Positions 15,314 to 49,581 of a DNA stretch of 64,000 bases are shown piece after piece. The position numbers and the translations under genes are program-made. The stretch is taken from assembly GCA_964501135.1 (NCBI GenBank), contig CAZCRI010000004.1, positions 47,238 through 111,237 on the forward strand, written 5' to 3'. The notes below the pieces were generated by a model. The model worked only from the letters and a program-made list of their open reading frames with translations, searched no databases and was not told the origin of the DNA. This DNA is from an uncultured Candidatus Saccharibacteria bacterium. Its GTDB lineage: Bacteria > Patescibacteriota > CPR2 > UBA1875 > CAIMLA01. The first letter of the stretch is position 1, and each line of letters starts with the position of its first letter.

Positions 15314-17701
15314 CTAGTTTTTATTTCCAAACTTTGCTTCGAGTTCCTTGATTTCATCCTTCATTTTAACCACGTCGTTGAGTAATATCTTCTCCTCAAC
15401 GGCCGCTACCAATCTCCTGGTACTGTCGATCATGTCTGGGTTTACGGAGATCGAAGTTGCACCGTATTCCACCATCTTCTGTGCCACCTCGGGGTAAACA
15501 CTCGGTGCCTGACCACAAATCGAGCATGTTACGCCATATTTGGCACAAGTCTCCACGGTTCTTTGAATCATCCATTGAACCGCTGGGTAGCGCTCATCAA
15601 ATTCCTCGGCTACTACCGAAGAATCTCTGTCGAGACCAAGCGTCAACTGGGTCAAGTCGTTTGAACCGATAGAAACCCCATCTATCCCCATCTCACAATA
15701 TTTATCGATTTCAATTACCGCACTCGGTACCTCTACCATAATCCAGAGCTTAAAATCAGGGTCAGTTTGTTTGTTGAGCCCGCTGGCTTCTACAATCTGT
15801 TTAACTTTAGCAAATTCGTCGGTGCGACGCACGAACGGAATCATCAATTGCAAATTATTGAAGTTCTTACGAACCCTCTTAATCGCCTCTAGCTCTAGAG
15901 AAAACTCCTCTGGATCTTTGAGATATCGGAAGCAACCCCTATAGCCAATCATCGGGTTTTCTTCGTTTGGTTCAAACTCTTCCCCACCTTTGAGACCTCG
16001 GTACTCATTGGTTTTAAAGTCGGTCGCCCGGTAAACCACATTTCTTGGATGGAATGCCTTTGCGAATGTTTCCATCCCTTCTGCTAGCTTGGCCACGTAT
16101 TCTTCTTGGCGTCCTTGCTTTATCATCGACTTTGGATGTTCTCCAATCGATTCCATAATAATAAACTCGGCACGAAGCAAACCGACACCGTCTACGTCCA
16201 TCGCTGCAACCTTCTCTGCAAGTGAAGGCTCGGCTAGGTTGACATAGATCTTCGTCGCTGTCACTGGAGCTGCTGGAGCTACCATCATTGTCTCACCAGC
16301 TGCTGGAGCTGCCGCCTTTGGCGCTTCTACCTTACCTTCGTAGACACTTCCGCCCTTACCGTCTACGGTTACCACCTGGCCATCCTTGAGCTTCGTGGTA
16401 GCGTCTCCGGTCCCAACAACACATGGAATCCCAAGTTCGCGAGAAACTATCGCTGCATGGCAAGTACGTCCTCCGGCGTCTGTAACAATCCCGGCGGCAC
16501 GTTTCATGGCTGGCACAAAATCTGGCGTCGTCATCTCTGTAACCAAAACATCGCCCTCTTTGATCAAGTCGATCTCAGAAGGACTATGAATAATCTTGAC
16601 TGGACCCGAAGCCATCCCGGTGCTCGCTGCCTGGCCTTTGATGATAACCTCATGTTTTGTATTATCCGCAGCACCCTCTTCTGTAGTTTCGACGGCAGAA
16701 TCTCCCAAGGTGGTTACAGGCCTACTCTGAACCATATACATTTTGCCACCTTCTAGTGCCCACTCCGTATCCTGAGGTTTACCGTAATGTTTTTCTATTT
16801 CCAGGGCAAGCTTGGAAAGCTGCATAATCTGAGCATCAGTTATTTTCTGCGCTTCCTGATCTTCGATCTGCACAGGAATGCTTTCGCTCTTTAGTACCGA
16901 AAGGTCTCCAGTGTCCCCAGAGCCCGAGTCTCGGGTAAGCTTCCAGGTCTGCTTAAAGATCTCTTTCGAGGTAACCTCAAGGGTCTTTTTATCCACCAAG
17001 TAACGGTCTGGAGTAACAGCACCCAAGACAACTACCTCCCCAAGACCATAAGCGGCTTCTATGGAAATGTGGTCTAGGTCGTTATTCGAAGGGTCGATGG
17101 TAAACATCACGCCAGCAGCTTCCGAATTTACCATCTTCTGAACAGGCACAGCGATACCAACATCGAGCTGACCAAAACCTTGTTCTTCGCGATAATAGAT
17201 GGCGCGAGCTTCAAAGAGTGACGCCCAGCATTTGAGAACTGCAACAAGGACTTCGTCGTCACCTTTTACGTTCAAATAGGTTGCTTGCTGGCCAGCAAAA
17301 GAAGCCCCTGCAAGATCCTCTGCGGTCGCGCTAGAACGTACAGCAACATAAAGCTCATCCAGAGGGGTCTTACTGTCCTTGGCTAGCTTGTGATAACTAT
17401 CTAAAATCTCTGTTTTTAACTCCACTGGGAGTGGCGTTTTTAAAATTAGGTCTTTTGCCTTCTCGGCACGTTCCTGCAAGTCCTTAGAGTCTTCCTTGTT
17501 GAAACCATCAATTACTGAACTAATTTTTTGTGCAAGATCAGTCGCCTTGAGGTAATCAAAATATGCATCTGCCGTGATGATAAATCCCGGAGGAACTGGT
17601 AATCCCGCCTTGGTAAGCTCCCCTAGATTGGCTCCTTTTCCGCCAACAATTGCCCCGTCATCTTTTCCAACCTCTGAAAACCAAAGTATATCTCTACTCA
17701 T
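15314..17701 (-). CDS. ppsA: Phosphoenolpyruvate synthase (pyruvate, water dikinase); PPDK not excluded
   Basis: 795 aa; N-terminal ATP-grasp (VGGKGANLGELTKAG), phosphohistidine domain GGRTCHAAIVSRELGIPCVVG, C-terminal PEP-utilising TIM barrel. Confidence 0.8.
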   Translation of the reverse strand: MSRDILWFSEVGKDDGAIVGGKGANLGELTKAGLPVPPGFIITADAYFDYLKATDLAQKISSVIDGFNKEDSKDLQERAEKAKDLILKTPLPVELKTEILDSYHKLAKDSKTPLDELYVAVRSSATAEDLAGASFAGQQATYLNVKGDDEVLVAVLKCWASLFEARAIYYREEQGFGQLDVGIAVPVQKMVNSEAAGVMFTIDPSNNDLDHISIEAAYGLGEVVVLGAVTPDRYLVDKKTLEVTSKEIFKQTWKLTRDSGSGDTGDLSVLKSESIPVQIEDQEAQKITDAQIMQLSKLALEIEKHYGKPQDTEWALEGGKMYMVQSRPVTTLGDSAVETTEEGAADNTKHEVIIKGQAASTGMASGPVKIIHSPSEIDLIKEGDVLVTEMTTPDFVPAMKRAAGIVTDAGGRTCHAAIVSRELGIPCVVGTGDATTKLKDGQVVTVDGKGGSVYEGKVEAPKAAAPAAGETMMVAPAAPVTATKIYVNLAEPSLAEKVAAMDVDGVGLLRAEFIIMESIGEHPKSMIKQGRQEEYVAKLAEGMETFAKAFHPRNVVYRATDFKTNEYRGLKGGEEFEPNEENPMIGYRGCFRYLKDPEEFSLELEAIKRVRKNFNNLQLMIPFVRRTDEFAKVKQIVEASGLNKQTDPDFKLWIMVEVPSAVIEIDKYCEMGIDGVSIGSNDLTQLTLGLDRDSSVVAEEFDERYPAVQWMIQRTVETCAKYGVTCSICGQAPSVYPEVAQKMVEYGATSISVNPDMIDSTRRLVAAVEEKILLNDVVKMKDEIKELEAKFGNKN

Positions 17702-27076: not shown

Positions 27077-28342
27077 TTAGATTAAACCAAACTCCTTTCC
27101 TGCTTTTTCAAAAGCAGCAGCCGCTGCGTCTAAGTCCTTCTTTTCATGTGTTGCCATAATCGTAACTCTAGCCCTAGCTGAATTTTTTGGAACAGCCGGC
27201 CATCGGAAACAGGGAATGTAAACTCCAAGCTCAAGTAATCTATCAGAAAACTTTACTGAGAGATCTTCATCTCCAATCACAACTGGCAAAACAGAGATTG
27301 TTCCGTCACCAAGTACCGTATAACCCATGGCCGTAAGTTTGTCTTTTAAATAGACCGAGTTGTCCATCAATTTCTTTCTCAGTTTTTTGCCCTCAGCATT
27401 TTGGCAAATCTTCAAAGACTCAATAGCGCCACCGGCTAAGACACCCGGGACAGCACTGGAAAAAATATATGGCCTTGAAGCAACTTTTAGATAATCTATC
27501 AGTTCCTTCTTCCCTGCTAGATAACCACCCATACAACCGATGGTTTTATCAAATGAACCCATTAAAATATCAACCTTGTCCGTAATTCCTAGATATTGTG
27601 GAACACCCCCTCCATCATTGCCCATTACTCCAACACCATGAGCATCATCAACCATAAAGATACAATTATACTTTTCGGCTAAAGCTGCGATTTCCTTTAG
27701 CTTTCCAAGGTGTCCGTCAAGACTAAAAACCCCCTCAGTGACAATTAATTTATGTTTATTTTTTGAGTACTTTTTTAACTTATTTTCTAAATCAACAATG
27801 TCATTGTGCTTAAAAACAACTTTCTTTGACGAACTGAGCCTGCAGCCATCAATTATTGTGGCATGATTGTATTCGTCACTGAAAATCACCCCGCTACCCT
27901 TAGCGTAAGGTACCCCGTTCATAAAAAATGGGTCCATAACCGCACTGAAAACCGCCAGGTTGGCCATATAACCCGTAGGGAAAGTAATAGCTGCTTCCTT
28001 GCCCACTGTCTTTGCAACAACTTCGTCAAGCTCCTCGAGAACCTTAATATTTCCGCACAAGAATCTCGAACCTCCTGGTCCGCCACCATGTATATCTAGC
28101 TGTTTTCTGGCTCCCTCAACAACCTTCCTGTTGGTTGCCAATCCCATATAATTATTTGAGCTAAACATTAGGACCTCTTTGCCATCAATAACTACCCTGG
28201 CATCAGTACCATTGTTTTCAAATTTTTGGAACTTAGGATATATATCTTCTTTTTTTAGAAAATTTAGAAGCTTCTCAATATTTGCAAATTTATAATCTTC
28301 TCTCGAAATTGCAAGCTTAATCAGGTCTGCGGCTTTTATCAT
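27077..28342 (-). CDS. PLP-dependent alpha-oxoamine synthase (Kbl/BioF/serine palmitoyltransferase family)
   Basis: 421 aa; class II aminotransferase fold; PLP-lysine region SFDKTIGCMGGYLAG; DDAHGVG motif. Confidence 0.8.
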   Translation of the reverse strand: MIKAADLIKLAISREDYKFANIEKLLNFLKKEDIYPKFQKFENNGTDARVVIDGKEVLMFSSNNYMGLATNRKVVEGARKQLDIHGGGPGGSRFLCGNIKVLEELDEVVAKTVGKEAAITFPTGYMANLAVFSAVMDPFFMNGVPYAKGSGVIFSDEYNHATIIDGCRLSSSKKVVFKHNDIVDLENKLKKYSKNKHKLIVTEGVFSLDGHLGKLKEIAALAEKYNCIFMVDDAHGVGVMGNDGGGVPQYLGITDKVDILMGSFDKTIGCMGGYLAGKKELIDYLKVASRPYIFSSAVPGVLAGGAIESLKICQNAEGKKLRKKLMDNSVYLKDKLTAMGYTVLGDGTISVLPVVIGDEDLSVKFSDRLLELGVYIPCFRWPAVPKNSARARVTIMATHEKKDLDAAAAAFEKAGKEFGLI

Positions 28343-28383
28343 AATCCCTCCTTCTCTAATATAATTCTACACTATCTTCTTGC

Positions 28384-30129
28384 TTAGCTATACATTTCTT
28401 CAATTTTGACAGCTTTGTTTGCTAAAATTACCTGCCTTTTTAGCGACAGTTTTGGCGTGAGTTCTCCACCTTCTATGCTGAAAGGCTCTGCAAGTAAGGC
28501 GAATTTTCGAACGTGCTCGATAGTAGATAGATGTGCTGTCTTGTTTATCGCCTCGCCCGAGATTAGCTCAAATACCTCTGGCATCTTAGCTAGTTTTGCC
28601 TTGCTCTTCACATTGAAATGAAGTGCCAACTGCGCATAGTCAGGAACGATTAGGGCAGCGATATGCTTATGTCCATCCCCTACCACCATTGCTTGCTCGA
28701 TATAGAGACTAGACTCGAGCGCATTCTCGATGTGGACAGGAGCGACTTTTTTGCCGGTTGTGAGCACTATCAGGTCCTTTTTGCGTCCGGAGATGGTAAG
28801 AAAACCATCTTTATCGATTGTGCCGAGATCGCCAGTACAAAAGTAACCATCTTTGGTGAATGCATCTTTGTTATCGGCCGGTCGCAAATAACCCTGAGTA
28901 ATTGTCGGTCCCTTTACTAAGATTTCCCCGTCCTTCGCGAGCTTAAGCTTGAGATTGTAAATTGGGTGACCGACGGTACCAAATCGGTAATTTGTAATCT
29001 CATTTACCGCGATAATCGGTGAGGTTTCCGTGAGGCCATAACCCTCAAGGACCAGCATATCGACCTTGGCGAAAAATTGACCGATCTTCTTCGGTAATGA
29101 TGCTCCACCAGAGATGAAGAAACGGATATTGCCACCAAAATTACCCTTTACCTTGGAGAAAACTAGTTTATCAAAAAGTGGATAGAACGGGCTGCTTTTC
29201 TTCGTAGCAAAGGCGAGGCGGAATATCAGCTTGGTGAGTAGGCTCTTATTTGCCTTGGCCTGAACCTTTTCGTAAATCTTCTCATATAGCCGCGGGACTG
29301 CTAGTACAATGGTTGGCTTTATTGCCTGTATTTCTTCCGACAGAGTATTTAGGCTCAGGCAGTATGCAATGCTAGCACCGGCATAGATAGGGATATAGTA
29401 TCCCGCGGTACGCTCAAAAACGTGTGAAAGCGGCAAGATAGAAAAAAATCGATCGGTTGGCAATATCCAAATAGAGTGTGTAGTACCGATAATGTTCTCA
29501 ATAAAGTTACCGTGAGTAAGTTTCACTCCCTTGAGGTGACCTGTAGTACCAGAAGTATAGATGATACTGGCAAGAACATCGGGCCGAATCTCGAGCGCTC
29601 CTGCTGCCAGCGCTGCTTCCTGTGCCTCGGTAATTTCCATATCGTTGATCAGTTTCTTGAAATAGAGAAGTTTGGCAAAGTTCGTATCTTCGATATGGGT
29701 AAAAGATACCAGGTGCTCGATTTTCGCCACATCCCGAGCAATTTCAAGGAGTTTATCTTCAATCGCCTTCTCCGAAAAGAAGATTGCCTTGGGCTTGATT
29801 TCTTCAATTATCCCAGCGAGTTGCCCAGCCGAAAGTACCTCGTGAACTGGGACCGTGACTCCGCCGATTAGTTGCAAGGCAAGATCAGTGATTACCCACT
29901 CTGGACGATTTTCGGAAATCAAAAGAACTCGGTCCCCTTGCTTGAAACCGAGATTCAGCATCGCCTGGGCAAGCGCCATAACCTCACTTTTTAGTTCAAA
30001 GTAGGTCAGGCTTTCGTAATGATGGCCTTTTTTGTATCGTAGGACTTCGTTTTGGGCACGTAGCTCGGCCGAAGTGAGAAACATATCGGCTAGATTTAGC
30101 GGTATCCACTGCTCTTTTGGCTTTGTCAC
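28384..30129 (-). CDS. Long-chain fatty-acid--CoA ligase (AMP-forming)
   Basis: 581 aa; AMP-binding signature IIYTSGTTGHLKGV; GYGLTE; C-terminal ligase domain. Confidence 0.85.
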   Translation of the reverse strand: MTKPKEQWIPLNLADMFLTSAELRAQNEVLRYKKGHHYESLTYFELKSEVMALAQAMLNLGFKQGDRVLLISENRPEWVITDLALQLIGGVTVPVHEVLSAGQLAGIIEEIKPKAIFFSEKAIEDKLLEIARDVAKIEHLVSFTHIEDTNFAKLLYFKKLINDMEITEAQEAALAAGALEIRPDVLASIIYTSGTTGHLKGVKLTHGNFIENIIGTTHSIWILPTDRFFSILPLSHVFERTAGYYIPIYAGASIAYCLSLNTLSEEIQAIKPTIVLAVPRLYEKIYEKVQAKANKSLLTKLIFRLAFATKKSSPFYPLFDKLVFSKVKGNFGGNIRFFISGGASLPKKIGQFFAKVDMLVLEGYGLTETSPIIAVNEITNYRFGTVGHPIYNLKLKLAKDGEILVKGPTITQGYLRPADNKDAFTKDGYFCTGDLGTIDKDGFLTISGRKKDLIVLTTGKKVAPVHIENALESSLYIEQAMVVGDGHKHIAALIVPDYAQLALHFNVKSKAKLAKMPEVFELISGEAINKTAHLSTIEHVRKFALLAEPFSIEGGELTPKLSLKRQVILANKAVKIEEMYS

Positions 30130-30233
30130 GGGTATCCCCTCCAGCTATTCAGTATTTGTATATTACCAGATACTTGCACTATTGTGGAGACTTTCTCCTG
30201 ATCCCGCACCCTAAAGTATTCTCTATATCATCC

Positions 30234-30271
30234 GGTGGTAAAGTTGTTGCTGGAGCAACAACTTTACCACC
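30234..30271. repeat. Perfect hairpin (17-bp stem, 4-nt loop). Its left arm plus loop (30234..30256) is the exact inverted repeat of 30871..30893.
   Basis: ggtggtaaagttgttgc-tgga-gcaacaactttaccacc, read directly. Confidence 0.9.
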
Positions 30272-30285
30272 TTATTAAAAAACCA

Positions 30286-30864
30286 TCAGTCTTCGAGGTT
30301 AAGTTTAAACTTCCTCATGTATTCTGCCTGTCGAGGCAAGTGGTCGGTAACCAGGAAAACTACGTATGACGAAACACCGATACTGTGTGCAAACACAGCC
30401 AATTCCTCCTTGCATTCATAGGGAAAGGCAAACATGCTTTCCTGGACTTTCTGAAATCTATTCTGAAGCAGTTTTTTACGGAAGTACTCTCGCTCCTTCT
30501 TTGCAGTGTCTGGGATATCGTAAGCAACTACGCGCCACAAGCCATCCCAACGTTTTGCAGTCTCAATAGTAAACTCTTCAGACTGCAACAGATGCATCAG
30601 CTTCTTTCCTTTCGAGGTCAGCTTTACCAGGTCGCCACTTAAAGATATCAAATCCTTGTCCTCCAGGGCTTTCATACAACGTTTCGCGTTATATTTTGAA
30701 TATTTATTCCCAGGAATTAGTGGGGCCACTGCCATTGGCAAACCGGGGACAACCATAGAAGCTAAGACAAAAGTACCCACTCCAATATATCCAAGAATCT
30801 CCTTCTCTTTCTTTCCGAGACGTATACTCTTAAGTTTTCTTCGTTCCTCTTGTGAGATTTTCAT
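30286..30864 (-). CDS. Hypothetical protein with N-terminal hydrophobic/wHTH-like region and C-terminal Cas2-like (ferredoxin-fold nuclease-like) motif
   Basis: 192 aa; WRVVAYDIPDTAKKEREYFRKKLLQNRFQKVQESMFAFP matches the Cas2 pattern (V-x-YDI ... R-x-x-L ... Q-x-S-V/M-F); later SSYVVFLV strand; N-terminal GDLVKLTSKGKKL resembles a winged-helix wing; GGAG ribosome-binding site lies inside the flanking repeat. Confidence 0.5.
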   Translation of the reverse strand: MKISQEERRKLKSIRLGKKEKEILGYIGVGTFVLASMVVPGLPMAVAPLIPGNKYSKYNAKRCMKALEDKDLISLSGDLVKLTSKGKKLMHLLQSEEFTIETAKRWDGLWRVVAYDIPDTAKKEREYFRKKLLQNRFQKVQESMFAFPYECKEELAVFAHSIGVSSYVVFLVTDHLPRQAEYMRKFKLNLED

Positions 30865-30870
30865 TTCTTT

Positions 30871-30893
30871 GCTCCAGCAACAACTTTACCACC
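30871..30893. repeat. 23-bp inverted-repeat partner (exact reverse complement of 30234..30256), immediately 5' of the Cas2-like gene; contains its SD
   Basis: gctccagcaacaactttaccacc. Confidence 0.9.
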
Positions 30894-30942
30894 ATAGTTT
30901 TTGTGCTACTAGTAGACAAGTTATAAGTTGCTACTGAATTCC

Positions 30943-31896
30943 CTACCGGGAGAAATTCCACTTGTATCCGTTAGCCGCCCCAAGATAGGCGTCGAAACTT
31001 CCCTGTAAACTCTGTGCGGTAGTAGTTGGAAACATTCGGATCCTGGGAATTTCATAATTATTTCCCGACTTGGCGAAAGGCTGGGTCGTAACTGCGGCCT
31101 TATATCCAGCGGCCTTTGCTTCTCGTTCCGTAAGTTCTCCAAACCGTCCCGAAGGGTAACACAGAAATCCCACTGGCTTTCCGGTTATTGCCTCCAAATC
31201 GGCCTTACTCTTGGTGAGCTGATTATCCATATCTCCCTTATTTGCAAACTGCATATCGATATGAGTTACCGTATGCGATTGGACATCCATACCAGCATCT
31301 GACATTTCACGTAGCTGCGCGCTGTTCATGTACGATCCAGCTCCAACGTAACCAGAAATAATAAAGAAAACCCCCTTTTGACCACGTTCTCTCAGTCTAG
31401 GAAATACCTCCGCGTAATTATCTGCATAGCCATCGTCAAAAGTGAGAACCACAGATTTTTCTACCACCCTACCAGCAAATAAATCGGTAAGAGTAATAGT
31501 ATGATAGCCGTTGCTCTTGAGCCAATCTAGCTGGGCAGCAAAAGCCTCGGGTGTTACCGAAAGTCCTGCCTCTATCTTGTCCTTACCAGTATACGTCCGG
31601 ATATGATGATACATGAGGACCGGAACTAGTTTGTCACCAGAGACATAATGCCTTTCCTCTCCTCTCGGCATCGGCGGAATAACCTGGGGGACATACTCCC
31701 CTTCATGAAATACTTGCTCTGCCTCTTGAGCCTGCACCGGATCCTTGACTACGGCTTGCATGGAGACATGATTCTGTGAAGTACGCGCCCACCACAACAT
31801 TCCAAATATCATAATTAATACCCAGATAACGGTGAAAGAAAAATAATTTCGAAGAAAACGATGCGTATTTGGTTTTGTTATACTATCTTGATGCAA
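30943..31896 (-). CDS. Polysaccharide deacetylase (NodB homology domain), membrane-anchored
   Basis: 317 aa; N-terminal TM; motifs VLMYHHI and LTFDDGYADN. Confidence 0.8.
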   Translation of the reverse strand: MHQDSITKPNTHRFLRNYFSFTVIWVLIMIFGMLWWARTSQNHVSMQAVVKDPVQAQEAEQVFHEGEYVPQVIPPMPRGEERHYVSGDKLVPVLMYHHIRTYTGKDKIEAGLSVTPEAFAAQLDWLKSNGYHTITLTDLFAGRVVEKSVVLTFDDGYADNYAEVFPRLRERGQKGVFFIISGYVGAGSYMNSAQLREMSDAGMDVQSHTVTHIDMQFANKGDMDNQLTKSKADLEAITGKPVGFLCYPSGRFGELTEREAKAAGYKAAVTTQPFAKSGNNYEIPRIRMFPTTTAQSLQGSFDAYLGAANGYKWNFSR

Positions 31897-48367: not shown

Positions 48368-48605
48368 ACTTTCTCCTTCCTTCCCTGAATATCAGGTGCT
48401 TTTCATAAAAGCTGACACGCTAGCCGTCTTCTAGAAGATTCCGCAAACTATGCGGGCTTTCTATTCGATTGAGTACATCTTTTCTAAGATTGTTTATGTG
48501 TAAAGTGAAAATTTGTAATTTAAGGCCAGGAATGTCAACTAGTTTGTTTACTAATTTACATCGCTATTATACGACTTTTGGCACCTTTTAGCAAATGAGA
48601 TTTTC

Positions 48606-48660
48606 CAGTAAAAAGAAACAACGGCCGCGACCCGCTGTTCCTCAGAACAGGGATCACGAC
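48606..48660 (-). terminator. Long GC-rich imperfect hairpin followed by a U-rich tract on the minus transcript; probable terminator of the island-2 gene
   Basis: Minus-sense GGUCGUGAUCCCUGUUCUGAGGAACAGCGGGUCGCGGCC then GUUGUUUCUUUUU; 12 nt after the stop at 48672. Confidence 0.45.
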
Positions 48661-48671
48661 CGTTCGTGTAG

Positions 48672-48983
48672 TTATCGCTTGGACCAGTGGCCCTCGAACT
48701 TCCCTCCGTTGACCTCGCAGTAGTGTGACTCCGCGGCACTTTTGGCCGTGGGCATGTACGGCTCCACTGCATCCAGCAGCGGGCCGTCAAAGTCCCCGAT
48801 GTGAACCTGGTACTGCATCCTGTCCTTCTCGTCCCTGACGGGGATCCCATCGTCAGTGTAGAGCTTCTCGACGTAGTACAGAATGTTCCCTTCTTCGTCG
48901 ACCAGCTTGGCATCGCGTGAGTTGATCCAGACCCATTGGAGCTTGCGCCCTGATATCCGGATGTTGTTCTGGCTAGCAGCCAA
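48672..48983 (-). CDS. Hypothetical small protein encoded on high-GC island 2 (no family assignment)
   Basis: 103 aa; TTG start preceded by consensus SD AAGGAGGTG with 5-nt spacer. The overlapping 146-aa ORF (48551..48991) is a Ser/Thr/Arg-rich out-of-frame artefact. Confidence 0.6.
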   Translation of the reverse strand: MAASQNNIRISGRKLQWVWINSRDAKLVDEEGNILYYVEKLYTDDGIPVRDEKDRMQYQVHIGDFDGPLLDAVEPYMPTAKSAAESHYCEVNGGKFEGHWSKR

Positions 48984-49164
48984 CCTGACACCTCCTTATG
49001 GTCTTTGTCTCAGCTCCCGCCAAGATTTAACAAACAGGACAATTCCGTATATCACAGGCCATCGCACCAGACCCTTGGGCGGTGCGACAAGCTCGAGATT
49101 CCTGGACCTTCGACGTGCAGACTGTACAAACCCGCTCGGGGTACGATCTGCCATATGGCAACAC

Positions 49165-49581
49165 CTACCCCTTCGGTTTCGGTTGTGTAATGTGAGGTTC
49201 AGCACCATAGTGCGGTACTACTACCCCTTCAAATGATGCGCCACGTGATTCTAGCACGGTTTTTCCTTTTTGTAAAAGCTTATCGGTGTCTGTTTCGTCT
49301 GCAACCCCCGCTATCGGGATGTCATATGTATAGGCAATAGTATTGGCCACCGAGAGACCGATGCGCAAACCAGTAAATGACCCCGGGCCAGCGTTCACAA
49401 TAATGCCAGTTATCCCCTTATTTAAAGCGTTATTATCCGTAGTAGGTAATACAGTTTGAAGTTTTTGTATAATAAGTTTATTCAATTCTCGACCAGCGAC
49501 AAAAGCCTCTTTTGCGAACCATTTTTGGTCCCAAAGACCAATAAACGCGTTTTCGCTAGCGGTATCGAACACTAAGACCAT
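49165..49581 (-). CDS. tsaB: tRNA threonylcarbamoyladenosine biosynthesis protein TsaB (YeaZ), unusually short
   Basis: 138 aa; MVLVFDTASENAFIGL and GPGSFTGLRIGLSVANTIAY motifs; typical TsaB is longer, and the 3' end abuts the high-GC island. Confidence 0.75.
   Translation of the reverse strand: MVLVFDTASENAFIGLWDQKWFAKEAFVAGRELNKLIIQKLQTVLPTTDNNALNKGITGIIVNAGPGSFTGLRIGLSVANTIAYTYDIPIAGVADETDTDKLLQKGKTVLESRGASFEGVVVPHYGAEPHITQPKPKG

Follow-up and report, generated by a model that had tools for sequence, protein, structure and literature searches.

A short PaaX-type regulator gene between two copies of its predicted operator in a Patescibacteria genome

A 64-kb stretch of DNA (hereafter, the window) from an uncultured Candidatus Saccharibacteria bacterium carries a minus-strand gene for a 192-aa protein, with one copy of a long palindromic sequence just upstream of it and another just downstream (Table 1). 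The downstream copy is a perfect palindrome with 18-bp arms (30234-30251 and 30254-30271) around a 2-nt center and is the sole perfect long inverted repeat of the window; an earlier note on this DNA had described the same structure as a 17-bp hairpin with a 4-nt loop. As that note stated, it lies 14 nt from the stop codon of the gene (TGA, 30288-30286, minus strand), and its other end is 104 nt from the GTG start of the acyl-CoA ligase gene. The perfect 23-bp repeats previously reported at the gene ends are contained in a longer match, positions 30234-30258 and 30869-30893 being 100% complementary over 25 nt. The left arm and core of the upstream site (30869-30893) are identical to the downstream site at 25/25 nt, while its right half (30856-30868) is degenerate (11/22 positions symmetric), since both the ribosome-binding region and the ATG (30864-30862) overlap this stretch. 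The 23-nt copy ends 6 nt from this ATG, in agreement with the earlier description, and the 25-nt match ends 4 nt from it.

Table 1 Features of the regulator locus and its neighbors in window coordinates.
Feature	Position	Strand	Description
BioF/Kbl/serine-palmitoyltransferase-like PLP enzyme gene	27077-28342	-	Co-directional, downstream
Fatty-acid--CoA ligase gene	28384-30129	-	Co-directional, downstream of regulator gene
Downstream site	30234..30271	.	Perfect 18+2+18 palindrome, GGTGGTAAAGTTGTTGCT-GG-AGCAACAACTTTACCACC; predicted full operator
Predicted operator core	30249-30256		GCTGGAGC, inside downstream site
Gene for 192-aa short PaaX-type regulator (predicted)	30286..30864	-	Pfam, AF2 model, Foldseek
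N-terminal domain	residues ~18-95 of 192-aa protein		Probable winged helix
C-terminal domain	residues ~104-178 of 192-aa protein		Cas2-like PaaX_M domain
Upstream site	30856..30893	.	Predicted autoregulatory operator
GGAG, probable Shine-Dalgarno	30872..30875	-	Within operator core GCTGGAGC, 7 nt before ATG
Promoter-like region	30891..30919	-	TTGTCT (30919-30914), 17-nt spacer, TATGGT (30896-30891)

The repeat is specific to this gene. With up to three mismatches, the 18-mer GGTGGTAAAGTTGTTGCT occurs exactly three times in the 64-kb window, always at this gene (0.03 occurrences expected; 0/100 shuffles reached three). A window scan with a pattern of the arms alone returned one extra match at 17099, which is intragenic, has no core and was judged a chance hit. 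The exact pattern GTAAAGT-N4-GCTSSAGC-N4-ACTTTAC was matched once among JGI metagenome contigs, within a ribosomal protein L18 gene and again by chance. An Rfam scan of the window reported tRNAs only.

GGAG within the upstream repeat had been proposed as the Shine-Dalgarno (SD) sequence of the gene, and it is the sole plausible candidate. In the close relatives L047 and L049 this core is farther from the ATG, at a distance of ~30-50 nt upstream, with purine-rich SD-like stretches closer to the start codon, suggesting that GGAG is primarily a feature of the operator and stands at SD distance here by coincidence. The hexamers TTGTCT and TATGGT may constitute the promoter of the regulator gene, judging from their sequence and spacing, with the last 3 nt of TATGGT forming the first 3 nt of the upstream site; a consensus promoter scan made no call at this position. 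The 12-mer TGTCTACTAGTA (30918-30907) within this region is conserved among close relatives: it is single in the window, and L047/L048 and L049 alone were found to have it at the corresponding position.

Profile matches and structural modeling indicate that the 192-aa protein is a short PaaX-type regulator, comprising a probable winged helix and a PaaX_M domain and ending before any PaaX_C domain. Pfam PaaX_M (PF20803) matched residues 104-178 with 63.5 bits (cut-off 24, 2e-17). The Cas2-like signature noticed earlier is genuine, as CRISPR_Cas2 (PF09827; 27.1 bits, cut-off 23.8, 4.9e-6) and TIGR01573 (Cas2; 25.8, cut-off 24.5) both passed their cut-offs, but these were partial matches over the first half of the Cas2-like domain and far weaker than PaaX_M. 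Passing curated Cas2 cut-offs means that members of this family can be mislabeled as orphan Cas2, which is how the earlier note had viewed the protein. PADLOC gave partial Cas2 matches only, and no PHROG matched. No match to PaaX_C (PF08223) was found in the 192-aa protein, whose chain stops ~14 residues past the Cas2-like domain; more distant homologs of 260-268 aa do carry PF08223. TIGR02277, the PaaX equivalog profile, scored 24.2 bits against a cut-off of 264.55, so the protein is not an ortholog of PaaX proper. For the N-terminal domain, HTH_45 scored 17.3 bits, and 19.8 bits in the homolog P0002, both below the cut-off of 25.5, and the family profile, which also matches PaaX, aligned over its helix-wing segment to the winged-helix protein S19e (E = 0.022).

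AlphaFold 2 modeled the C-terminal domain as a ferredoxin-like beta-alpha-beta-beta-alpha-beta fold with pLDDT above 90 and gave the N-terminal domain an H-H-H-beta-beta secondary structure at low pLDDT (~50). A structural comparison of Cas2/VapD with PaaX had been called for earlier. The Cas2-type fold of the C-terminal domain was upheld, and the top Foldseek match in the PDB was nevertheless E. coli PaaX (8a39; 158 columns, TM only 0.37), followed at ranks 2-21 by Cas2 structures (probability 0.9-0.99), except for PaaX-like Rv0674 at rank 12. Together with the PaaX_M score, this points to a winged-helix regulator of the PaaX family and not to an orphan Cas2-fold protein. The family, assembled by alignment-based search and a full HMMER search, comprises 2,416 representative clusters whose source records name members "PaaX family"; PF20803 was present in 56/56 homologs found, and all named source records fetched were Patescibacteria MAGs. 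Its members invariably keep the Cas2 hallmark residues Y115, D116, Q141 and S143, making an enzymatic role possible, whereas E. coli PaaX does not have these residues at the aligned positions. As noted before, the 64-kb window contains no CRISPR array, and Cas1 is absent among the families listed for its 57 ORFs, at most 25 per summary; in the loci obtained by exact protein look-up, no cas genes occurred among the recorded Pfam families of called genes.

The arrangement of site, gene and site recurs in related genomes. About 30 of 41 related loci present a genome-specific quasi-palindrome just upstream and just downstream of the gene, with no further copy elsewhere within ±2.5-10 kb, and ~29 loci hold exactly 2-3 site copies, all close against the gene. 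In 25/37 loci the match between the upstream and downstream flanks exceeded every within-locus control by >3. The layout is shared by three of four closer relatives (L047, L049 and L052) and by three 20-kb loci, one of which contains two paralogs separated by 5 kb, both flanked by a site pair of their own. Several divergent paralogs are found per genome, with different sites, and site sequences vary both between genomes and between paralogs, the arms following the clades of the putative recognition-helix region. No targets beyond the gene flanks were detected in the inspected 5-64 kb per genome. The earlier note had allowed for a generic repeat unrelated to the gene; instead, within 64 kb the repeat is confined to this gene, and the repeat-gene-repeat unit is conserved in relatives.

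A perfect 25-nt inverted repeat flanks the gene, in line with the earlier proposal of an invertible cassette, in which recombination between the copies would flip the 610-bp segment. Because the repeat is a palindrome, any two copies are both direct and inverted repeats, and the "inverted" relation depends on the two central nucleotides. The view that the ends are related as inverted and not direct repeats does not extend to relatives, as this 2-nt center is in direct orientation in the closest ones (L001, L047 and L049) and in 19 of 26 loci, being inverted in the remaining 7. The sequence is also present in another assembly (L002, run ERR3839025), in the orientation seen in the window, no invertase or recombinase occurs among the families listed for the 57 window ORFs, and inversion of a whole gene together with its own ribosome-binding site (RBS) would switch nothing obvious. 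We consider that an invertible cassette has next to no chance of being the correct explanation.

When the sites were aligned on their centers, a common architecture emerged: the site spans ~34-38 bp, with a central core of 8 bp flanked by 6-bp arms at ±12-17. Conservation and symmetry are highest at ±1-4 and ±12-17 and drop past ±18, with positions ±5-11 only ~50-70% symmetric. Downstream sites were not significantly more symmetric than upstream ones (13 vs 10, p = 0.06), as would have been expected under an anchor-operator logic. For one subfamily, 7/9 members have an upstream site of the form T[TA]GACA-N17-TAnnnT, and their ATG follows after 4-7 nt, i.e., the site is the core promoter itself. 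These features bear on whether the palindromes function in RNA, by forming hairpins at its 5' and 3' ends, by terminating transcription, or through a 3' hairpin masking the RBS (the pairing of a 3' hairpin with the 5' UTR had been suggested earlier), perhaps with the Cas2-like domain binding or cutting the transcript. The downstream palindrome is indeed predicted to fold strongly as RNA (-29.1 kcal/mol, z = -7.8) and has 25-nt complementarity to the GGAG-containing region, and some Cas2 and VapD proteins are RNases, as titles of PDB structures also indicate. Conversely, no RNA fold is predicted for the window's upstream copy (-3 kcal/mol, z = +0.58), showing that the sequence and not a hairpin is conserved, and differences between the two copies of a locus are one-sided and pair-breaking in 130 cases and compensatory in 7, which argues for a DNA site. 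The upstream copy of the subfamily, as the -35/-10 region, would be mostly untranscribed, and copies are direct in most relatives. As a terminator the downstream palindrome was rejected, since it is followed by no T-run on either strand and the terminator scan made no call. An RNA-level function is therefore given only a slim chance.

The chance is slimmer still that the unit is, or once was, a minimal mobile or selfish element whose ends are recognized by the encoded winged-helix/Cas2-like protein in an IS200/IS605-like geometry, a revised form of the miniature mobile element suggested in the earlier note. The unit is compact (~660 bp) and self-contained, sits amid unrelated housekeeping genes, occurs as several divergent paralogs per genome and encodes an invariant Cas2-type Asp motif; its end sites are mostly direct, as are those of IS200/IS605. 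However, no target-site duplication is present (outer flanks ...tatatcatcc / atagtttttg...), and the 64-kb window contains neither a second copy of the unit nor a second paralog of the protein. Paralogs of the same genome are divergent and their sites differ, and the protein is without a PHROG match. No HUH-type motif was seen among the invariant residues of the family, and no recombinase among the families listed. Furthermore, the unit is found in conserved synteny in four groups of loci (e.g., NUDIX-unit-UvrC in L006, L009, L010 and L056), in opposition to recent mobility.

In the window, the ligase and PLP-enzyme genes (27077..30129) are candidates for control by read-through past the downstream site. 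Neighbors of the closest homologs include AMP-binding, PlsC-type acyltransferase, Aminotran_1_2 and LCAT-like lipase genes, and such recurrent lipid genes are limited to the sub-clade of the window; family-wide no conserved neighbor gene was found (94 singletons), the neighbors being unrelated housekeeping genes. No conserved small ORF that could explain the site was found beyond it. The sites could nevertheless belong to an ordinary regulon of two promoters, the upstream one serving autoregulation and the downstream one being the operator of the next transcription unit, so that the bracketing would have no special meaning. In favor of this, the window and about half of the loci have a co-directional gene next to the unit, the closest relatives of the window are located among lipid genes, and in six loci (L006, L009, L010, L020, L024 and L041) the center of the downstream site is only 20-70 nt before the next start codon. 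This reading is unlikely, as about half of the loci (~14) have a convergent neighbor, often with <50 nt of room, and ordinary control of an adjacent gene does not explain the downstream site. The site is squeezed between two stop codons in L016, L017, L023, L028, L034 and L039, and in L001 and L047 it overlaps the stop codon of the regulator gene, with a separate consensus promoter 20-90 nt further on. In the window itself, the ligase gene has its best -10-like element starting ~88 nt downstream of the site center. The families of neighboring genes are also unrelated between loci.

Overall, we favor, with a probability of about 78%, the reading that the two copies are cognate operators of the PaaX-type repressor encoded between them, giving autorepression. 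The winged helix of the short repressor would contact DNA, and the Cas2-like domain would probably mediate dimerization by analogy with Cas2 and PaaX. The upstream copy, predicted to overlap the -10, transcription-start and ribosome-binding region of the regulator gene, would allow the protein to repress its own production, in the manner of E. coli PaaX at the Px promoter. The perfectly palindromic downstream copy, past the 3' end of the gene, would be the second operator, most likely cooperating with the upstream site through DNA looping over ~620 bp. Repressor bound there may also be a roadblock against read-through into the acyl-CoA ligase and PLP-enzyme genes, which would last until the protein leaves the DNA. 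All of this, from binding and repression to the loop or roadblock and a possible ligand, is predicted, with the role of the downstream site suggested by analogy to other repressors. Because the layout recurs across many Patescibacteria, a self-regulating repressor unit is the most likely identity of the site-gene-site arrangement, as opposed to an invertible or mobile cassette.

A broader and rather doubtful proposal is that such units form a Patescibacteria-wide class of self-bracketing modules, each a gene between two private 34-38-bp operators that may loop or form a roadblock and act as a self-insulated switch or operon boundary. If true, these modules would offer a natural collection of repressor/operator pairs, numbering in the hundreds and orthogonal to one another. 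In the most radical version of this proposal, the Cas2-type Asp motif may be catalytic and the unit may be a domesticated or selfish element linked to the ancestry of Cas2 and PaaX.

Transcriptional control in Patescibacteria (CPR) is poorly documented, and a literature search found no publication that connects these bacteria with PaaX or reports sites of this kind. The present analysis provides a large regulator family with a predicted DNA site that can be read, genome by genome, from both flanks of the gene, and the many divergent pairs of protein and site could be used to study how proteins and DNA co-evolve, or as orthogonal parts. A conserved site-gene-site arrangement is uncommon for bacterial regulators and suggests autoregulation by looping or roadblock as a family trait. 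The neighboring acyl-CoA ligase and serine-palmitoyltransferase-like genes hint at control of lipid salvage by the regulator.

Several known systems resemble parts of this unit. IS200/IS605 elements, MITEs and invertons are likewise short, like this unit of ~0.7 kb, and have palindromic sequences resembling each other close to their two ends, and IS200 carries one small gene whose product has a ferredoxin-like core. In contrast, no target-site duplication, multiple identical copies or HUH/Tyr motif was found here, nor an invertase among the families listed, the palindromes do not exhibit hairpin-preserving covariation, and the unit is inherited in conserved synteny. With Cas2 and VapD the protein shares the ferredoxin-like beta-alpha-beta-beta-alpha-beta fold and the YDI...R...Q-S-F motifs, but its Cas2-like domain is fused to a predicted DNA-binding domain. 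Unlike Cas2, it is accompanied by no CRISPR array in the window and by no Cas1 among the families listed, and the named records fetched place it in CRISPR-unrelated housekeeping contexts of Patescibacteria.

In its domain order, with a probable winged helix before the Cas2-like domain, the protein resembles PaaX, the phenylacetyl-CoA-responsive repressor of E. coli and Pseudomonas (8a39), whose winged helix precedes a Cas2-like middle domain. In E. coli, PaaX represses its own promoter by steric hindrance at an operator of two widely spaced inverted arms (TGATTC-N27-GAATCA), and the C-terminal helical domain PaaX_C (PF08223) binds phenylacetyl-CoA (PMC9493321). That operator and the sites described here span ~34-39 bp, with N27 between the arms in E. 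coli and 6-bp arms separated by N22 here, and the latter sites have an additional conserved 8-bp core and stand on both sides of the regulator gene. Just as the PaaX operator overlaps its own promoter, the predicted sites cover, in silico, part of the putative -10/start region of the window and, in the subfamily (7/9), all of the core promoter. PaaX has 316 aa including PaaX_C, whereas the protein here has 192 aa and ends without it; the Cas2 hallmark residues, absent from E. coli PaaX at the aligned positions, are kept in this family. An acyl-CoA ligase gene adjoins the regulator here too, but with no linkage to a paa operon. PaaX is released from DNA by an acyl-CoA effector; for a similar effector here, the adjacent fatty-acid--CoA ligase gene and the lipid genes near the closest homologs would offer a candidate context.

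For the placement of the sites, the nearest parallels are lambda cI, located between OR and OL (looping), and lacI, with lac O3 at the 3' end of the gene (roadblock autoregulation). In both, one operator is at the promoter of the regulator and another at or beyond the 3' end of its gene, an arrangement that results in cooperative or roadblock-type negative autoregulation, which is proposed here by analogy. However, lambda cI and lacI are single, well-studied cases with extra target promoters, whereas in the Patescibacteria two near-identical, long (~38 bp) sites appear to be a family-wide property of a small two-domain protein.

The downstream site, a perfect palindrome, lies 14 nt from the stop codon of the regulator gene, and its exact 25-nt reverse complement ends 4 nt before the start of the same gene (6 nt when counted from the 23-nt copy described in the earlier note, whose account of the sequence was confirmed). 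When up to three mismatches were allowed, the 18-mer occurred three times in 64 kb, always at the regulator gene (0.03 expected), and relaxed versions of the motif gave no other credible match in the window. The upstream copy retains one arm and the core, its other half being overwritten by the ribosome-binding region and start codon, and does not fold (z = +0.58). Two additional palindromes were observed, one inside the regulator CDS that is also found in the second assembly of this sequence (L002), and one at or close to the intergenic gap separating ORFs 48551-48991 and 49165-49581.

Conservation of the repeat-gene-repeat arrangement in related genomes, suggested earlier as a check, was borne out using 43 homologous loci fetched from species-representative genomes (record titles naming Patescibacteria or unclassified "bacterium" MAGs, except for four Gammaproteobacteria and one Verrucomicrobia), with further loci added for closer relatives and long contigs. 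Of 37 analysable loci, 25 had a best ungapped match between upstream and downstream flanks that was more than 3 above that of any control region within the locus. In ~29 loci, the shared sequence sits right before the start codon and right after the stop codon, exactly twice (three times in L005 and L008), with no further copies within ±2.5 kb; relative to the start and stop codons, median site centers fall at -36 and +40, respectively. The L001 homolog (57% identical), for instance, has GCGGTAAAGTAAAAGCTGGAGCGAAAACTTTACCGC upstream of the gene and a 97% identical copy overlapping the regulator stop codon. The same bracketing was seen in the closer relatives L047, L049 and L052 and in the 20-kb loci L054, L055 and L056, the last with two paralogs 5 kb apart that each have their own distinct site pair; L050 has the upstream site only. 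A third site is present in some loci: the extra copy forms an upstream pair in L005 and L056 and, in L008, a downstream pair spaced 82 nt apart. A simple ORF caller (minimum 70 aa) called no gene in the 400-860 nt on the 3' side of the unit in L008, L011, L012, L020-L022 and L037.

Alignment of the sites on their symmetry centers revealed one common plan, although the sequences differ from genome to genome. Identity between copies and self-complementarity are both high at ±1-4 (an 8-bp core, e.g., GCTA|TAGC or GCGA|TCGC, and GCTG|GAGC in the sub-clade of the window) and at ±12-17 (6-bp arms), lower at ±5-11, and fall past ±18, producing a widely spaced inverted repeat of ~34-38 bp. Both this core-plus-arms plan and the family-wide flanking of a gene by paired copies of a long, private predicted operator appear to be new, as neither was found described in the searchable literature.

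In a subfamily from Gottesman-, Davies- and Levybacteria and relatives, 7 of 9 loci have an upstream site of the form T[TA]GACA-N17-TAnnnT, followed 4-7 nt past the -10 element by the ATG. Here, the palindrome is itself the core promoter of a seemingly leaderless gene and would therefore be mostly untranscribed; its near-palindromic sequence also gives a promoter reading on the other strand. In the window, the -35-like element is part of a 12-mer, TGTCTACTAGTA, that L047 and L049 (relatives 53-54% identical) keep in the corresponding position, 7-8 nt ahead of the upstream site, with no occurrence in the rest of the window or the other loci. This 12-mer, which includes the 8-bp palindrome TACTAGTA, could act as a promoter element or as another binding site. 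Among copy-to-copy differences within loci, 130 were one-sided, breaking a pair intact in the other copy, and 7 were compensatory. These counts, the non-folding upstream copy and the promoter overlap do not suit an RNA or single-strand hairpin. They fit a predicted site in duplex DNA, recognized by a symmetric protein at the promoter of the regulator itself.

Features of the regulator unit in the window and in homologous loci
Feature	Position	Strand	Remarks
Regulator gene	30286-30864	minus	192 aa
Downstream palindrome	30234-30271	plus	GGTGGTAAAGTTGTTGCT-GG-AGCAACAACTTTACCACC; 18 bp, 2-nt center
Upstream copy	30869-30893		25 nt
Imperfect palindrome in CDS	30555-30588		16 nt; TTGCAGTCTCAATAGT / ACTCTTCAGACTGCAA; 88% complementary, 2-nt loop
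Overlapping-arm palindrome	49138-49171		around TGCCATATGGCA; 83% complementary over 23 nt
-35-like TTGTCT	30919-30914	minus	sequence match
-10-like TATGGT	30896-30891	minus	17 nt from TTGTCT; overlaps edge of upstream site
12-mer TGTCTACTAGTA	window 30907-30918; L047 1921-1932; L049 1907-1918	window: minus	
T[TA]GACA-N17-TAnnnT	L020, L022, L023, L027, L028, L031, L034		upstream of PaaX-like gene
28 consecutive called ORFs	845-36066	minus	
PemK-type toxin gene	L049 2798-3193		directly 3' of PaaX-like unit
Lipid-related genes	window 27077-30129; L001 1180-1845, 2616-4289; L047 180-1913; L049 1335-1895, 3470-4540; L051 1-1853		

Among protein families, the 192-aa protein best matches PaaX_M (63.5 bits), which represents the Cas2-like middle domain of PaaX, and a winged-helix match was sub-threshold. 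A weaker, partial Cas2 match (residues 111-148) still exceeded the curated cut-offs of both Pfam CRISPR_Cas2 and TIGR01573, the cas2 equivalog of NCBIfam. An AlphaFold model built with 36 homologs showed a confident beta-alpha-beta-beta-alpha-beta C-terminal domain preceded by a low-confidence helix-helix-helix-hairpin, and Foldseek against the PDB returned E. coli PaaX (8a39, 158 columns) as the best match, followed by many Cas2 structures. The family comprises 2,416 representative clusters (E ≤ 1e-3), with members labeled at source as "PaaX family transcriptional regulator" of Patescibacteria/Parcubacteria. The protein is therefore a short PaaX-type DNA-binding protein rather than an orphan Cas2; the Cas2-like call of the earlier note holds for the domain but not for the whole protein. 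Since a non-CRISPR protein exceeds Cas2 cut-offs, members of this large family can be mis-annotated as orphan Cas2.

Any two copies of a palindrome are direct and inverted repeats at once, and the inverted relation proposed earlier rests on the 2-nt center, which is direct in L001, L047, L049 and L052. An invertible cassette was not supported, as the downstream copy was the better fit to a direct repeat in 19 loci and to an inverted one in 7, and the second assembly (run ERR3839025) has the same orientation as the window. Nothing pointed to recent movement as a miniature mobile element: the unit is single-copy in the window, with no second paralog there and no target-site duplication, paralog ends differ, and synteny is conserved in four groups of loci (e.g., NUDIX - unit - UvrC). 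No CRISPR array was found in the 64-kb window. The unit does not qualify as an inverton, a MITE or a CRISPR Cas2; checks for some of the hallmarks of each were negative. The ribosome-binding site placed within the repeat was upheld in part. GGAG, within the conserved core GCTGGAGC, lies 7 nt ahead of the ATG and probably acts as such in the window, the only locus with this spacing, whereas in L047 and L049 a distance of 30-50 nt separates the core from the ATG, with purine-rich SD-like stretches closer to the start.

Ordinary models leave the downstream site unexplained. About half of the loci have a co-directional gene after the unit; in the others this gene is convergent, frequently leaving <50 nt between stop codons. 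Neighbors are unrelated housekeeping genes (e.g., UvrC, PBP2, DprA, glycosyltransferases), and no small ORF beyond the site is conserved across loci. L001 and L047 each have a site that overlaps the stop codon of the regulator, with the next gene served by its own consensus promoter farther along. The downstream site is therefore to be assigned to the regulator gene. It may serve as a second operator, looping cooperatively with the upstream operator, as for lambda cI between OR and OL, or as a 3'-end roadblock, as for lac O3 in lacI. In the roadblock case, read-through transcription of the fatty-acid--CoA ligase and the BioF/serine-palmitoyltransferase-like gene would be gated at this site. 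A scan of 29800-31300 called no intrinsic-terminator-like site in the intergenic DNA on either side of the regulator gene. Most gaps in the surrounding ORF run are very short, those at the regulator gene (78 and 156 nt) being among the larger.

The closest homologs adjoin genes for an AMP-binding fatty-acid--CoA ligase, PlsC-type acyltransferase, Aminotran_1_2 and LCAT-like lipase, and the BioF/serine-palmitoyltransferase-like PLP enzyme also recurs, with gene order and orientation shuffled. This neighborhood suggests a lipid-salvage context for the sub-clade of the window, and these genes may constitute a lipid-salvage cluster in these Patescibacteria.

Overall, the 192-aa protein falls within the broad PaaX_M-containing family and is not a PaaX ortholog, because the C-terminal domain present in PaaX is missing and its PaaX equivalog score is far under the cut-off. 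Y115, D116, Q141 and S143 are invariant in the family, as in Cas2, whereas E. coli PaaX differs at the aligned positions; an enzymatic or selfish role for this retained motif (Y115, D116) is at most possible. E. coli PaaX represses its own promoter Px via steric hindrance, and its reported operator, TGATTC-N27-GAATCA (PMC9493321), is a widely spaced inverted repeat like the family site. The unit is predicted to work like a PaaX-type autorepressor with its operator.
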